Shown here: positions 1 to 4,510 of the stretch, piece by piece
Position numbering within the stretch: position 1 is the stretch's first letter
How the letters are laid out: every line of letters begins with the position of its first letter
IMG/VR virus record: IMGVR_UViG_2737471843_000002
Location: 1 to 4,510 of that record
Strand: one strand, 5' to 3'
Length of the DNA stretch: 4,510 nt
DNA from: a virus
Lineage: Duplodnaviria; Heunggongvirae; Uroviricota; Caudoviricetes
Made by a program: the position numbers and the translations under genes
The notes under the pieces: model-generated
Database searches by the model: none
Told to the model about the DNA's origin: nothing
The model's input: only the letters and a program-made list of their open reading frames with translations

Positions 1-20
1 ATTGATGCGGAGGGCAGCGC

Positions 21-647
21 ATGAGCAACGCACCGACCATTAAATCGGGAAATGCCGACTTATTACACGCCGAAGCCACACCGCACGGCGTCAATATCAT
101 GACCCGCAATGATGCCGGGGGATATGAGCAGGTTGCTCTTATCAGCTACGAGAGCGCCGTGAACGGCCTTGACGCCGGAGAGTACGACGATAAGCCAGAT
201 ATCGGATACGCCATTCATTTTGCCGTTGCTGATGGCGGGGCGCGTGGCTGGTTCGACTTCACCGCGCAGCATAACGTCACTATGTGGCGCTGGCTGATTG
301 CTGCGACGTTCATTTCTGAGATGAAGCGCGAAAACGGCACAACCACGGTAACTGAGTCTGACGGCACTTCATCGCAGGTGGCGATTTACTCCAATGGCAC
401 GGCGGGGATTGTGGTTTACCCGTTCGCGGAACGTCTGGCGATGGCTAACAACATGGAGGGCGCAATGGTTGAGCGCTACGGCATTGAGCAGGGAACAGCG
501 AACGCCATTGTTTTTTATCAGGCCATGATCGACACGGAGCGCGGCGAGTTGACCCCGTTCGGGCGTGAAACGCTTGCTGAACTTCACAACAGCTTTATAG
601 CTGAACTGGATGAAAACGGCTGGCCTGAAATGCCGCTGGCGCACTGA
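21..647 (+). CDS. Hypothetical acidic protein, 208 aa, function unknown
   Basis: Complete ORF from the six-frame track. ATG at 21 is preceded by GGAGGG at 9-14 (6-nt spacer). The stop TGA at 645-647 is followed after 9 nt by the next start at 657. By my hand count the protein has about 29 Asp+Glu against about 11 Lys+Arg. No catalytic motif recognised. Confidence 0.7.
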   Translation: MSNAPTIKSGNADLLHAEATPHGVNIMTRNDAGGYEQVALISYESAVNGLDAGEYDDKPDIGYAIHFAVADGGARGWFDFTAQHNVTMWRWLIAATFISEMKRENGTTTVTESDGTSSQVAIYSNGTAGIVVYPFAERLAMANNMEGAMVERYGIEQGTANAIVFYQAMIDTERGELTPFGRETLAELHNSFIAELDENGWPEMPLAH

Positions 648-656
648 GGGGGCGAC

Positions 657-998
657 ATGATTACTAAAAATTTCCGACTTAATGCGCTGGCGAATAAGTA
701 TGCGTCGGCACTGTATAACCACATTACGGCTATCAATGGTGGCAATTACTTCATGGTTGACGCGGCAGGCCAGCAAATCCGTGTGGAAATCGTCAATGGA
801 GTAAAAGGCGTTCGCAGCCTGATCGATAGCTACACACTGGCAGCCATGAAAGTGTCCTACCCGCAGTGGGAAACCGTGGGGATAGAGCTTCTTGATCGTT
901 GCGTCACTAATGACGGATTGACTGACGTCGGGCGTGAGATATGGCAAAGCATGGTTAAAGACATGGGCGCGACCGTGGCAGGGGGCAACCATGCGTAA
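657..998 (+). CDS. Hypothetical protein, 113 aa, function unknown
   Basis: Complete ORF. ATG at 657 is preceded by GAGGGGG at 646-652. Its stop TAA at 996-998 overlaps the ATG at 991 of the primase-helicase (ATGCGTAA), indicating translational coupling. No recognisable motif. Confidence 0.7.
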   Translation: MITKNFRLNALANKYASALYNHITAINGGNYFMVDAAGQQIRVEIVNGVKGVRSLIDSYTLAAMKVSYPQWETVGIELLDRCVTNDGLTDVGREIWQSMVKDMGATVAGGNHA

Positions 999-3432
999 TA
1001 TCGACATTATCCGCGAAGTGACCAGTGCCGCCGCCGGGCGCTGGCCTTATGTGCTGGCTGGATTGTCTATCGACGTGCCTGATTCATCGCGCCGCCATTC
1101 TCCATGCCCTGCATGTGGTGGGAAAGACCGTTTCAGATTCGACGACAACGGGCGCGGTAGCTTTATCTGCAATCAGTGTGGCGCTGGTGACGGTTTAGAC
1201 CTGATTAAGAAGGTGAACAACTGCGACACCACAGAAGCGGCGAGGCTTGCCGCTGATGTGCTGGGTATTGATTACCGGGCAGCGCAAACCGACCCGGTGG
1301 CAGCGAGCCATAGAAGAGAGCAACTGGAAGCTGACCGCCAGCAGCGTGAGCAGGAGCGCCAGAAACAGGCAGCAGAGGATGCAGAGCAGCGAAGGGCTAC
1401 GTTTGCCCGTCTGTATGCCGGAATGCGCCAGAGTGCCACACAGGGCGAATCTGATTACCTGCAATCAAAAGGGCTGACCGGGTTTAAATATCCGGTAATG
1501 CCGGATGGTTCGTTATTGCTGGAGCTGGTGGACGAATCCGGCGCAGTGGCAGCAGCGCAAACCATTACACCGCAGGGAGAGAAGCGACTCCTGACAGGTT
1601 CAGCAAAGCGCGGGGCATATCACGCCGTTAACGCACCGGAACAGCCGCAGGCGGTGATTATTGCCGAGGGGCTGGCAACCACTTTATCAGTCCACCTGAT
1701 GCGCCCTGACGCGCTGACAGTGTGCGCCATTGATGCGGGCAACCTGCTACCCGTTGCCGAAGTGATGCGCCGGAAACACCCGCAGTCGCAAATTATCATT
1801 GCCGCAGATAACGACCACCAACAGGACGAACAGGCGAACACGGGCAAAGATGCCGCAGAGAAAGCCGCCTTATCCGTGGCTGGCTGGGTGGCGCTGCCGC
1901 CGACAGACTACAAAGCCGACTGGGACGACTACCGCCAGCAAAACGGGCTGGAAGTCGCTACGGCTGCGTTTAACGATTCGATGTACCAGATTCAGGGGGA
2001 AACCGTGAAACCACAACTACAGGCCATTGCGGGCGGTAAATCCCGCCGTAAAGCCGAAGTCGGAGATATTGCACAAATGGCAGCCAGCCAGAAAGCGCGG
2101 TTGCTTTCATCTCGATGGGATATGTTGGCGGTTAACCCTGATAGTGGCACTGTTTACTGCTACGAATCTGGCGTATGGGAGAAGCTACCAGACAGTGAAT
2201 TAGAAAGGGTTATGGTGGCAATTTTCGACGAGCACGAAGCCCACTACACCGAAAAGGGGATTAAATCGGTTGTCGCAACCATGAAGCTGCAAATACCGGT
2301 AATTGGTGAGCGGAGCGGGGATTTGATTGGTTTTGATAACGGCGTTTATGACCTCGCTACGCAGACGTTTTCCGCCCATTCGCCGGGTAACTGGCTGATG
2401 AACCACAATGGGATCACCTACACCCCGCCAGCGCCGGGGGAAAATATTACCACCAGCGCCCCCAATTTTACCAGTTGGCTGAATCATGCAACGGCTGGCG
2501 ACCATCATAAGGCCGAGCGTATCAAAGCAGCCTTGTTTATGGTGCTGGCGAAGCGTCACGACTGGCAGCTATTCATTGAGATAACTGGCGAGGGCGGCAG
2601 TGGAAAATCCGTATTCAGCAGCATAGCAACCACGCTGGCAGGTGAACACAACACCGCCAGCGGTAGCATGATGACGCTGGACACCGCACGGGGACGGGCG
2701 CAGTTCGTAGGAAAAAGCCTGATTATTATGCCTGACCAGACCCGCTATGTTGGAGAGGGTGCGGGGATTAAAGCCATTACGGGCGGCGATCCGGTAGAGA
2801 TTGATGGGAAATATGAAAAGCAGTTCACAACCGTGATAAATGCCGTTGTTATGGCAACCAATAACGAGCCGATGACATTCACGGAGCGAAACGGGGGCAT
2901 TGCCCGCCGCCGCGTGATATTCCCGTTTAATAACCCGGTATCAGACGCAGACAAAGACCCGGATTTAACAGCAAAAATCAGGCGAGAAATCCCGGTGATT
3001 ATCCGCCACCTGCTAACCACCTTTGCCGACCAGAACAAAGCAAAAGCACTATTACTAGAGCAGCGCGATTCGCAGGAGGCGCTAGAGGTTAAACGCGGCA
3101 CGGATCCGGTTGTCGATATGTGTGCGGCGCTTTTTTTCATGAACGAACCCAAAGGCATGATGATGGGCGGAGGTACATGGGCAGGCCAGCCAGAGCCGAG
3201 GACGTATCTTTATCATCTTTATCTGGCGTTTATGGAGTATCACGGTTTGGGTAAACCGCTTTCCGTCAATAAGTTTTCACGCGCCATAAAATCAGCAGCA
3301 AAAGAGTACCGAGCCAGCTACCTGACGAGAAGCATTAACGGCAGAGCGCAAACCAACGTTGGCTATAACGAGAAGGCTGAGGAGTTCATGCCCCGTGCTT
3401 ACGGTGTGGAGAGCGGGCAGAGTGATGATTGA
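991..3432 (+). CDS. Primase-helicase (Zn-ribbon + TOPRIM primase + SF3/D5-type helicase), P4 alpha-like replication initiator
   Basis: Long ORF; the track gives 934-3432 from a GTG, but I prefer ATG 991 (GGGGG at 981-985, overlap with the upstream stop), giving 814 aa. Cys4 motif CPACGG...CNQCG is encoded at 1105-1179. TOPRIM-like IIAEGLATT has its Glu at 1666-1668 and IIAADNDH its Asp-x-Asp at 1807-1815. Walker A GEGGSGKS is at 2587-2610, Walker B-like SLIIMPD has its Asp at 2734-2736, and SF3 motif C VVMATNN is at 2842-2865. A C-terminal region of about 190 aa follows the helicase core and is a candidate DNA-binding domain. Confidence 0.92.
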   Translation: MRNIDIIREVTSAAAGRWPYVLAGLSIDVPDSSRRHSPCPACGGKDRFRFDDNGRGSFICNQCGAGDGLDLIKKVNNCDTTEAARLAADVLGIDYRAAQTDPVAASHRREQLEADRQQREQERQKQAAEDAEQRRATFARLYAGMRQSATQGESDYLQSKGLTGFKYPVMPDGSLLLELVDESGAVAAAQTITPQGEKRLLTGSAKRGAYHAVNAPEQPQAVIIAEGLATTLSVHLMRPDALTVCAIDAGNLLPVAEVMRRKHPQSQIIIAADNDHQQDEQANTGKDAAEKAALSVAGWVALPPTDYKADWDDYRQQNGLEVATAAFNDSMYQIQGETVKPQLQAIAGGKSRRKAEVGDIAQMAASQKARLLSSRWDMLAVNPDSGTVYCYESGVWEKLPDSELERVMVAIFDEHEAHYTEKGIKSVVATMKLQIPVIGERSGDLIGFDNGVYDLATQTFSAHSPGNWLMNHNGITYTPPAPGENITTSAPNFTSWLNHATAGDHHKAERIKAALFMVLAKRHDWQLFIEITGEGGSGKSVFSSIATTLAGEHNTASGSMMTLDTARGRAQFVGKSLIIMPDQTRYVGEGAGIKAITGGDPVEIDGKYEKQFTTVINAVVMATNNEPMTFTERNGGIARRRVIFPFNNPVSDADKDPDLTAKIRREIPVIIRHLLTTFADQNKAKALLLEQRDSQEALEVKRGTDPVVDMCAALFFMNEPKGMMMGGGTWAGQPEPRTYLYHLYLAFMEYHGLGKPLSVNKFSRAIKSAAKEYRASYLTRSINGRAQTNVGYNEKAEEFMPRAYGVESGQSDD
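1105..1179 (+). other. Cys4 zinc-ribbon motif within the primase N-terminus
   Basis: Cys codons at 1105-1107, 1114-1116, 1168-1170 and 1177-1179 give CxxC-N17-CxxC. Confidence 0.75.
2587..2865 (+). other. SF3 helicase core (Walker A, Walker B, motif C) within the primase-helicase
   Basis: GEGGSGKS at 2587-2610; hydrophobic stretch plus Asp (SLIIMPD) at 2716-2736; ATNN at 2854-2865. The order and spacing are typical of SF3 (D5-like) helicases. Confidence 0.8.
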
Positions 3433-3450
3433 AACTTTTACGGCGGCACT

Positions 3451-3698
3451 TATCCCTACTGCCCTACTAAAAACGAGACGAGGCCAGACGTAGCAAGGCT
3501 TTAAACTAGGTAGGGATATATATTTTTATCCCTACTTATCCCTACATATCCCTACCAAATAAAACAGGCAGCAAAATGCCGTTGAAGTGATTTAGTAGGG
3601 ATAAGTAGGGTTATGTAGGGCAACAAAATTGAATGCCTACCAGTCTGAAAGCCTTGCCATTCGTGGCCTGAGCCAGTTAGTAGGGATTGGTAGGGATA
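3451..3698. repeat. Iteron array: about 11 copies of the 9-mer GTAGGGATA in both orientations
   Basis: Top-strand TATCCCTAC (reverse orientation) at 3451-3459, 3527-3535, 3537-3545 and 3547-3555, plus a degenerate copy at 3459-3467. Top-strand GTAGGGATA at 3510-3518, 3595-3603 and 3690-3698, with degenerate copies GTAGGGTTA at 3605-3613, GTAGGGCAA at 3615-3623 and GTAGGGATT at 3680-3688. Copies inside each block are spaced exactly 10 bp apart. Confidence 0.85.
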
Positions 3699-3703
3699 TT
3701 ACA

Positions 3704-3728
3704 CCCCCAAAAAGATTCTATGGGGGGG
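3704..3728. other. C5/G7 inverted repeat (possible stem-loop) including a G7 homopolymer tract
   Basis: CCCCC at 3704-3708 and GGGGGGG at 3722-3728 are separated by an A/T-rich loop. It lies 23 bp upstream of the ATG at 3751. No U-tract follows on either strand. Confidence 0.3.
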
Positions 3729-3750
3729 TAGCTTATAACGAAGGTGGGCA

Positions 3751-4053
3751 ATGAATACAGAAACCAGCCAGAAAATGACCTATCAGGAGCGTGAAGCATT
3801 GAAGGGGTTTACTGACAAACGCGCATTACAGGGCGACACCCAAAGCCTGCAAATGACCTTGAGGATGATCGCCCACTGGATGAGGCAGCCAGCAGAAATT
3901 GGATTTACAGAATATGCAACACACTGGACGGCAGCACAGGCCGGACGTGATGACGGGAATCACTCGACCGCAGCAATGGCGGAGCAGTGGCCTTTAAGGG
4001 AAGAAATGAAAATTATCCCCGGAGGTAGTGACTACATGAGGAAATATCTATGA
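3751..4053 (+). CDS. Hypothetical protein, 100 aa, function unknown
   Basis: Complete ORF. ATG at 3751 is preceded by AAGGTGGG at 3741-3748. Its stop TGA at 4051-4053 overlaps the ATG at 4050 of the SSB-like gene (ATGA), indicating translational coupling. An alternative start is the ATG at 3775. Confidence 0.6.
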   Translation: MNTETSQKMTYQEREALKGFTDKRALQGDTQSLQMTLRMIAHWMRQPAEIGFTEYATHWTAAQAGRDDGNHSTAAMAEQWPLREEMKIIPGGSDYMRKYL

Positions 4054-4510
4054 CAGCACAAATTTCAGCATACGGGCGGCTGGTGGCAGATCCCCAGACC
4101 CGTACCACAGCAAACGGTACAAGCATGGCAATGGGACGGTTAGCGGTGGCACTGCCCTGCCATGCAGCAGAGGGCGGAGAGGTTACTTTCTGGCTGGGCG
4201 TGGTGGCATTCGGCAAACAGGCCGACGCACTGGCAGGACACGTTAAAGGCGATTTAGTCAGTGTTGCCGGAGCGATGCAGATCAATCAGTGGACGGGCAA
4301 GGATGGCGGTACACAGCAAGGTTATCAGGTAGTAGCCGACAGCGTGATCAGCGCCAGAACGGTACGCCCCGGCGGGAAGCGGGCCGAATCAGTCAAAGCA
4401 AGCGGAGCCAGCAGGGGCCACACAACACAATCCGCGCCGGGATGGGAGTTATATAATACCCCTGATGATTTTGACCAACGCCCACCATTCGACGATGAAA
4501 CGCCATTCTG
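4050..4510 (+). CDS. Single-stranded DNA-binding protein-like (OB-fold) with acidic C-terminal tip; 3' end at the window edge
   Basis: Not in the ORF track because no stop falls inside the window. My manual translation from ATG 4050 (GAGG at 4038-4041, 8-nt spacer) gives MTAQISAYGRLVADPQTRTTANG...FWLGVVAFGKQADALAGHVKGDLVSVAGAMQINQWTGKDGGTQQGYQVVADSV...PPFDDETPF. Block-wise this resembles E. coli SSB ([60 protein letters not shown]; tip DDDIPF). The last two bases of the window are TG, so a TGA stop immediately after ...DDETPF is plausible. Confidence 0.85.
   Translation, partial: MTAQISAYGRLVADPQTRTTANGTSMAMGRLAVALPCHAAEGGEVTFWLGVVAFGKQADALAGHVKGDLVSVAGAMQINQWTGKDGGTQQGYQVVADSVISARTVRPGGKRAESVKASGASRGHTTQSAPGWELYNTPDDFDQRPPFDDETPF

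Follow-up and report, generated by a model that had tools for sequence, protein, structure and literature searches.

The stretch of DNA analyzed here (the window) comprises 4,510 nt of a virus record assigned to Caudoviricetes (IMG/VR record IMGVR_UViG_2737471843_000002, positions 1 to 4,510) and carries a palindrome embedded in an array of short repeats (iterons), located 3' of a gene for a P4-alpha-type primase-helicase. The array is a replication origin of the type found in the satellite phage P4 and in phage-inducible chromosomal islands (PICIs), and represents a further example of this known type rather than a new mechanism. The palindrome is a perfect inverted repeat consisting of GTAGGGATA (3510–3518), TATATTTT (3519–3526), and TATCCCTAC (3527–3535), i.e., two arms of 9 nt around a spacer of 8 nt. 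Judged from its sequence and that of related loci, it is very likely an initiator-binding junction integral to the origin. With less certainty, it is probably the point at which iteron orientation inverts in one half of a mirror-symmetric origin of the P4-alpha/PICI type, where opposed binding of the initiator would distort the A/T tract between the arms.

The bare palindrome was unremarkable, as 26% of 500 dinucleotide-shuffled versions of the window contained one or more perfect inverted repeats with arms of 9 nt separated by no more than 20 nt. Since the palindrome alone is not significant, the case rests on the enrichment of the iterons and on their conservation. The hexamer GTAGGG, which forms the iteron core (extended form RGTAGGGATA), is present in 11 copies in the window vs. 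1.3 expected, a number reached in none of 200 shuffles. All 11 copies are confined to positions 3454–3695, with none elsewhere in the window. Both palindrome arms are among these copies, in support of a first-pass annotation, made from the letters of the window, in which the arms were taken to be origin iterons.

The array starts 19 nt past the stop codon of the initiator gene. From left to right, it comprises two CCCTAC copies (starting at 3454 and 3462), a 42-nt segment (S1), a single GTAGGG (3510), a 14-nt spacer (S2), three CCCTAC copies (3530, 3540, and 3550), a central spacer of 39 nt (S3), three GTAGGG copies (3595, 3605, and 3615), a second 14-nt spacer (S4), a degenerate inverted copy (GCCTAC, 3635), a 39-nt segment (S5), and two final GTAGGG copies (3680 and 3690). 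As a whole it forms a large imperfect dyad centered near 3575, with 80-nt arms that were 73% complementary in a repeat search. Two modules are thus arranged head-to-head, and in the left one the palindrome forms the 3+1 junction, where three direct iterons face a lone inverted iteron; the right-hand twin has the same 14-nt gap. The centers of the facing hexamers lie 20 bp apart, corresponding to two helical turns. The first-pass annotation had regarded the palindrome as structurally distinct from the direct-repeat blocks, which was half right: because its right arm is the first of three direct repeats (3527–3555), it is not separate from these blocks. It is not unique within the array either, as the junction of the 3+1 module is present twice, in mirror image, the other copy being the degenerate twin GTAGGG-N14-GCCTAC (3615–3640). 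The A/T-rich core named in the same annotation, ATATATATTTTT (3516–3527), was correct in its letters but is not pure spacer, as it overlaps both arms; the uninterrupted A/T-only run at the palindrome measures 14 nt (3516–3529).

The 813-aa protein encoded upstream of the array is a full-length homologue of the P4 alpha protein (38% identity over 812 aa, E 1e-171), with the Pfam domains Zn_Ribbon_Prim, Toprim_3, D5_N, DUF5906, and Pox_D5. Its residues 704–796 matched the structure of the P4 origin-binding domain (OBD; 1KA8, E 4e-8). The helicase part matched PriRep of SaPI5 (7OLA, E 4e-10), a Staphylococcus aureus pathogenicity island (SaPI), and residues 360–800 showed 55% identity over 441 aa to Pri-Rep of the PICI EcCICFT073.

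Experimental support for an origin of this layout is available from EcCICFT073, in which deletion of the origin significantly lowers pri-rep-driven plasmid maintenance and a rep mutant gives no colonies (PMC6092414, Fillol-Salom et al. 2018). The gene order is shared with the window, with the origin directly 3' of pri-rep, followed by a small open reading frame (ORF) and the gene for the single-stranded DNA-binding protein (SSB; 61% identical). The array is shared as well: an outer pair, a lone inverted iteron, N14, a block of three, the center, a second direct block (with two clear copies), a lone inverted iteron, and another outer pair. EcCICFT073 also has a perfect palindrome, GGTAGACAG-N10-CTGTCTACC, the same boundary motifs as the window, and the same island backbone (int, alpA-like, Icd-like, DUF4222, and primase). 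The two systems differ in the iteron core (GTAGGG in the window vs. GTAGAY), in the N-terminal primase module (Zn-ribbon plus Toprim in a protein of 813 aa vs. a protein of 584 aa), and in base composition around the lone iteron: the 40 nt upstream of it are 55% A/T in the window vs. 76% in EcCICFT073, and the junction spacer is 100% vs. 71% A/T. The att site of the window island, at tRNA-Thr, is not among the E. coli PICI sites of Table S1.

The comparison with P4 draws on its GenBank annotation, a scan of its origin, secondary citations, and general background knowledge. Both P4 ori and crr are bound by the alpha protein. The P4 ori (9310–9413) comprises three copies of GGTGAACA at a pitch of 10–11 bp, N14, one inverted copy, an A/T-rich tract of 35 nt, and two further copies, and each half of the window array has this module layout of three direct, one inverted, and then two iterons. 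In P4, crr is built from a related module, present twice in tandem, and lies directly downstream of alpha, the position taken by the array in the window. The P4 initiator shares the order of its five domains with the window protein. The iterons themselves differ, the P4 type I iteron being TGTTCACC as opposed to GTAGGG(ATA) in the window. The P4 junction spacer is 62% A/T, and the A/T tract of P4 (35–37 nt) lies on the opposite side of the lone iteron. Furthermore, ori and crr are 4.5 kb apart in P4, whereas the window has one contiguous array of 250 bp. Apart from one stray GTAGGG, the remainder of the 12-kb island holds no second iteron cluster, so that the two modules stand head-to-head at one place. 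The sid, psu, and delta genes of the P4 satellite were not annotated in the window island. Because the layout is common to P4 ori and to the validated EcCICFT073 origin, the window feature belongs to a known, experimentally grounded origin type.

More distant parallels are found among the SaPIs. Their Rep proteins bind iterons via a C-terminal winged-helix domain and need no ATP to melt the origin; they are believed to load as a pair of hexamers around an A/T region with iterons pointing in opposite directions on its two sides (PMC9371898). In the SaPI/PICI model, melting takes place in the A/T region between two iteron sets (PMC6092414, PMC9371898). In the window, opposed iteron sets flank either the 14 bp of the junction, at 100% A/T, or the 39 bp of the center, at 64% A/T. 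The likeness to SaPIs extends to an origin directly 3' of rep, at least two iterons pointing in opposite directions on each side of an A/T region, and a hexameric helicase of the superfamily 3 (SF3) type; the differences are the Gram-positive hosts, a sequence similarity limited to the helicase core, and an A/T region described at the center of the SaPI origin. SV40 large T antigen and papillomavirus E1 are likewise SF3 helicases with their own OBDs, which use inverted site pairs beside A/T-rich or easily melted elements and form two hexamers for bidirectional unwinding. Their OBDs and DNA sites are not homologous to those considered here, and the resemblance of these core origins is one of working principle only.

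One genome per species was searched using the half of the protein that comprises helicase and OBD, yielding 68 loci with 48–97% identity over the best segment. In their DNA downstream of the primase, the iteron was GTAGGG in Kluyvera, Atlantibacter, Buttiauxella, Shimwellia, and an Aeromonas, GTAGAG, GTAGAT, or GTAGAC in Rosenbergiella, Yersinia, Tolumonas, and Aeromonas, GGTGAACA (the exact P4 type I iteron) in Tatumella, Erwinia, Rahnella, and Serratia, and a GTGYAY variant in Xenorhabdus, Photorhabdus, and Proteus. Loci L010, L021, L022, and L037 carry GGTGAACA. When reverse-complemented, the origins of relatives align colinearly with the window origin, with their iterons in register. A left junction with a gap of 14–15 nt was present in 14 of 16 hand-checked loci, the other two (L007 and L008) having an arm with 2 mismatches; facing hexamers of the GTAG classes were separated by 14 nt and those of the GTGAAC class by 15 nt. 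A class-agnostic search for any heptamer followed 17–23 nt on by its reverse complement, and 9–12 nt further by a second copy of the latter, was positive in 44 of 55 loci compared to 24 of 1,100 shuffles (2%), with matches located mostly about 110–125 nt beyond the end of the primase match. Junctions of this kind were built from at least six different iteron sequences (E. coli to Aeromonas, and P4), with both arms switching together. As both arms change together with specificity, they show the co-variation of a protein-recognized inverted pair. The inverted arrangement pointed out in the first-pass annotation is therefore supported, its orientation and two-turn spacing being kept across iteron classes.

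The sequence of the OBD, mainly in its predicted wing, also sorted by iteron class (GTAGGG, GTAGAG, GTAGAT, GTAGAC, GTGAAC, and GTGYAY). For example, the wing residues were SYLTRSINGRAQ in the window protein (GTAGGG) and EYKTRLVKGKTQ in locus L009 (GTAGAG). This sorting is the signature expected if the OBD reads the iterons, as it does in P4.

From these comparisons, the following sequence of events is proposed. By homology, each iteron is predicted to be bound by the primase-helicase encoded upstream, through its C-terminal winged-helix domain. The OBDs of a self-loading SF3 hexamer would occupy the 3+1 (+2) iterons, probably with one hexamer per half-origin. Because the lone iteron lies two helical turns from the block of three, the bound domains would face each other on one face of the helix. 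We infer that such opposed binding would distort the intervening 14-bp A/T tract, the most meltable DNA of this origin subtype, whereupon the helicase would encircle single-stranded DNA and the fused primase domain would prime synthesis. The mirrored module (3595–3695: three iterons, N14, one inverted, about 40 nt, and two) could supply the second hexamer for bidirectional replication.

In nearest-neighbor calculations, the tract at 3516–3529 was the least stable duplex of the window, ranking first among approximately 4,500 segments at each size (12, 14, 20, 30, 40, and 60 bp; z 3.3–3.9), as anticipated in the first-pass description of an easily melted spacer. The spacer was also the least stable duplex, or nearly so, in relatives of the GTAGGG, GTAGAG, and GTAGAT classes. 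Several observations nevertheless weigh against the proposed reading of the junction. An A/T tract of the size of a DNA-unwinding element (about 40 nt, 75–88% A/T) lies beside the lone iteron in EcCICFT073, in P4 ori, and in 34 of 42 relatives, including the GTGAAC and Xenorhabdus types, and the junction spacer of these origins is just 58–92% A/T. Their A/T tract is flanked by divergent iterons, whereas the spacer of the window is flanked by convergent ones. In relatives (L007, L008, L009, and L011), the arms often mismatch each other by 1–2 bases, and in the window the right-hand twin carries a degenerate arm. An offset of A/T-poor S1 by an A/T-pure spacer, suggested by the correlation over all loci (rho −0.45, p 0.003), lost significance after removal of near-duplicates (rho −0.21, p 0.35).

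The arm mismatches indicate that orientation and spacing are conserved rather than base-pairing potential, so that perfect palindromy is not itself selected. The right lone iteron was a perfect CCCTAC at equal spacing in L004, L057, L007, L045, L081, and L092. In the window, S1 (55% A/T) carries a conserved G/C-containing motif beside the lone iteron instead of an A/T tract, and the A/T element seems to sit on one or the other side of the lone iteron. Of the interpretation given in the first-pass annotation, the initiator-binding origin site is thus supported, but the spacer is only a candidate point of unwinding or helicase loading, as most relatives have their A/T tract beside the junction. 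We regard the junction spacer only tentatively as the primary melting site in this origin subtype, at somewhat below even chances. Slightly more doubtful is the possibility that the unwinding element was compressed into the 14-bp A/T spacer between convergent iterons, replacing the flanking tract of about 40 nt found in P4, EcCICFT073, and most relatives.

If the junction binds the initiator in an architectural, nucleating, or boundary role only, melting would take place elsewhere, most likely in the central spacer (3556–3594). Melting in an A/T-rich region flanked by two iteron sets is what the PICI/SaPI literature presumes (PMC6092414, PMC9371898), and the central spacer, at 64% A/T, has divergent iterons on both sides, as does the A/T tract of P4 ori and EcCICFT073. 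The frequently moderate A/T content of the junction spacer in relatives points in the same direction. However, the central spacer was not among the five least stable segments of the window at any size from 12 to 60 bp, and it carries a G/C hairpin. Among relatives it ranges from 16 to 86 nt, and it was never the most A/T-rich spacer in 13 segmented origins or in the P4 ori module. We consider this role of the junction, and a start of melting in the central spacer, rather unlikely.

A regulatory function of the palindrome, as an operator at which an initiator dimer or another regulator would set copy number or regulate the downstream ORF and SSB gene, appears very unlikely. In crystals, the P4 OBD forms a pseudo-twofold dimer, which is the target of the regulator Cnr. 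In many iteron plasmids, inverted iterons are operators for Rep dimers, which is established knowledge (reviewed in PMC4980987). The palindrome, however, lies downstream of the initiator gene and not at the initiator promoter, whereas the inverted half-iterons of iteron plasmids overlap the rep promoter and bring about autorepression, and no sigma-70-like promoter was predicted in 3380–3800. In addition, the arms are 20 bp apart from center to center, which is far for a compact winged-helix dimer, and the conserved module to which the junction belongs recurs in P4 ori, a non-promoter region. The palindrome might also be a passive by-product of iterons in both orientations, with nothing beyond two independent iterons. 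Its frequency in shuffled sequences, the variation of neighboring iteron copy number by slippage, and the imperfect arms of several relatives would all fit this reading, which is nonetheless highly improbable given that position, orientation, and gap length were retained over all these iteron classes and that the class-agnostic search separated the loci so clearly from shuffles. Least probable of all, with hardly any likelihood left to it, is a function as a nucleic-acid structure, i.e., a cruciform or hairpin initiation signal or an RNA hairpin terminating primase transcription. In single-stranded form, the palindrome gives a hairpin with a stem of 9 bp and a loop of 8 nt (−6.8 kcal/mol, z −2.5 to −3.9), and its A/T center would favor cruciform extrusion. 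The stem is not followed by a T-run, a terminator scan was empty at the palindrome, and an Rfam search (E up to 1) gave no match at gathering score, its one weak match (2774–2961) being unrelated. Differences between the arms at 1–2 positions in relatives break the pairing while orientation and spacing are kept, which fits recognition by a protein. A hairpin or cruciform as the selected feature was rejected because of the modest fold and this imperfect complementarity. The one terminator-like site in the region lies on the minus strand at 3569–3581.

The coordinates of the array and of the surrounding features are summarized in Table 1.

Table 1. Features of the iteron array and adjoining genes in the 4,510-nt window.
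Feature	Position	Strand	Description
P4-family primase-helicase, 813 aa	991–3432	+	Zn-ribbon, Toprim, D5_N, SF3 helicase, C-terminal winged-helix OBD (residues ~704–796)
Left boundary motif AAACTTTT	3432–3439		Overlaps primase stop codon; AAA(C/G)TTTT at left edge in most relatives, any iteron class
Outer left iteron pair	3451–3467	−	CCCTAC at 3454–3459 and 3462–3467; kept in all GTAGGG-type relatives
Segment S1, 42 nt, 55% A/T	3468–3509		Holds GCAAGGCTTT at 3493–3502; not A/T-rich, unlike EcCICFT073 and P4-type relatives
Lone inverted iteron GTAGGGATA (palindrome left arm)	3510–3518	+	Same relative position in relatives
A/T-only tract ATATATATTTTTAT	3516–3529		Actual spacer between 9-mers 3519–3526; least stable duplex in window
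Three direct iterons TATCCCTAC, 10-bp pitch	3527–3555	−	Units 3527–3535 (palindrome right arm), 3537–3545, 3547–3555
Central spacer S3, 39 nt, 64% A/T	3556–3594		Dyad center near 3575; hairpin GGCA-N6-TGCC, −4.2 kcal/mol, z −1.5
Three direct iterons GTAGGGATA, GTAGGGTTA, GTAGGGCAA, 10-bp pitch	3595–3623	+	Mirror of 3527–3555
Right junction spacer CAACAAAATTGAAT, 14 nt, 79% A/T	3621–3634		A-run mirrors T-run of left spacer
Degenerate lone inverted iteron GTAGGCATT (minus strand), 2 mismatches	3632–3640	−	Mirror twin of 3510–3518
Segment S5, 39 nt, 46% A/T	3641–3679		Holds CTGAAAGCCTTGC; core AAAGCCTTGC (3648–3657) is reverse complement of S1 motif
Outer right iteron pair GTAGGGATT, GTAGGGATA	3680–3698	+	GTAGGG starting at 3680 and 3690
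Right boundary stem-loop CCCCC-AAAAAGATTCTAT-GGGGGGG, then TA	3700–3730		Fold −7.9 kcal/mol, z −2.75; AAA(G/A)(A/C)TTTT and G-run kept in relatives
Downstream replication-module genes	3751–4510	+	100-aa ORF 3751–4053; SSB from 4050, runs off window

Besides the iterons, the origins of this primase-helicase family have motifs that are independent of iteron class, namely AAA(C/G)TTTT at the left edge and AAA(G/A)(A/C)TTTT with a GGGGGTA run at the right edge. The GCAAGGCTTT/CTGAAAGCCTTGC motif sits, in either orientation, in the segment of about 40 nt between the lone iteron and the outer pair. These boundary and S1/S5 motifs were found at matching relative positions in loci L005–L071 and L260 (window 3432–3439, 3493–3502, 3648–3657, and 3700–3730), and may be recognized by a host factor or by an invariant portion of the initiator, e.g., as a primase start site. 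Neither the length nor the sequence of S3 was conserved among relatives. A candidate DnaA box, TTATCCCTA, deviates at two positions from TTATNCACA and was judged, from sequence alone, to be a chance resemblance. Helical phasing of the two junction centers was also considered and dropped, since their spacings, determined by hand, were 84–141 bp and not consistently multiples of 10.5.

Among E. coli strains, the copy number of the triple blocks differed by exact 10-bp units, with two, three, or four copies in the left block (L002 and L003) and four in the right block of L104. This variation points to slippage or unequal recombination within the origin. A mosaic origin was found in E. coli DY612 (L261), of which positions 540–640 correspond to window 3432–3535. 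To the left, as far as the lone iteron, it resembles the origins of strain 873.10 and Shimwellia (L004 and L057), and the remainder matches the window; recombination has joined the two at the GGTAGGG of the palindrome, which is kept. In an IMG/VR contig (L130), an 86-bp deletion between two ACTTATCCCTAC repeats (window 3460–3545) has removed the lone iteron and the palindrome. This was the only variant without the palindrome, and as the adjoining primase gene is truncated to its last 170 codons, it looks like a decayed copy.

Viral and metagenome contigs were additionally pattern-scanned for three tandem GTAGGG repeats. Most matches were unrelated tandem or telomere-like repeats; only eight were relevant, namely L081, L092, L104, L111, L116, L130, and L257, plus a distant group of environmental viral contigs with unrelated DNA (L076, L083, and L131). 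The latter have a single module of one iteron, N14–15, and three inverted copies, preceded in L076 and L083 by an outer pair, and distant P4-alpha-like SF3 helicases (22–24% identity) are encoded nearby in L083 and L131. The 3+1 module may thus extend far beyond the enterobacterial family.

Two ORFs (21–647 and 657–998) immediately precede the primase gene and partly overlap it; they had no Pfam match, and their PHROGs matches were of unknown function. The second, of 113 aa, occupies the position of the replication regulator cnr in P4 without detectable similarity to it, and no homology was found between the small ORFs of the window and P4 Cnr, epsilon, ORF151, or cI. The N-terminal 350 aa of the primase (Zn-ribbon plus Toprim; window 991–2040) share 87–96% nucleotide identity with otherwise different E. 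coli proteins annotated as "TOPRIM and DUF927 domain-containing," indicating that the primase module recombines with different helicase and OBD modules. The helicase and OBD modules are presumably exchanged along with their origins.

All matches to the window DNA were E. coli chromosomes; phage records and close plasmids were absent. The origin sequence was found in 78 of 5,426 complete E. coli genomes. In strain CP131_Sichuan, the window lies inside an island of approximately 12 kb adjoining tRNA-Thr, with the order integrase, AlpA-like regulator, Ant, Icd-like, several small ORFs, primase, origin, SSB, and genes of unknown function. In locus L001, int adjoins tRNA-Thr and is followed by the AlpA-like excisionase/regulator; the genes from int to the ORF-3-family gene are co-directional, with one reverse ORF at the right end. 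L001 thereby shows an integrase, an alpA-like regulator, unidirectional genes, a size of about 12 kb (within the 8–15 kb or so of such islands), and a specific att site, which together make up the Gram-negative PICI backbone described previously (PMC6092414). PHROGs searches of 10 island proteins of L001 (not all of them) found no sid, psu, or delta. Capsid, cos, and packaging genes were not annotated in L001, where no search was made for a cos site. Downstream, a lambdoid prophage remnant (L001 27224–36220) adjoins the island in tandem at the tRNA-Thr region, carrying a second integrase, exo/bet/gam, an S24 repressor, and a replication gene broken by IS1.

While no new mechanism is revealed, a replication origin has been located and dissected for a common family of E. 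coli chromosomal islands, and the PICI-type origin is tied directly to the classical ori/crr design of P4. If the unwinding element is indeed compressed into the junction, the 46-bp 1+3 unit (3510–3555) would by itself form a minimal site where an SF3 primase-helicase melts the DNA and loads itself, and the mirrored units would fill the roles that P4 splits between ori and crr. The GTAGGG iteron and its cognate initiator form a defined pair that is useful for studies of incompatibility and specificity, and the layout provides a signature for annotating origins beside P4-family primase genes. With its fixed geometry across many iteron specificities, the 3+1 module could serve as a compact model for recognition, melting, and loading by SF3 primase-helicases.

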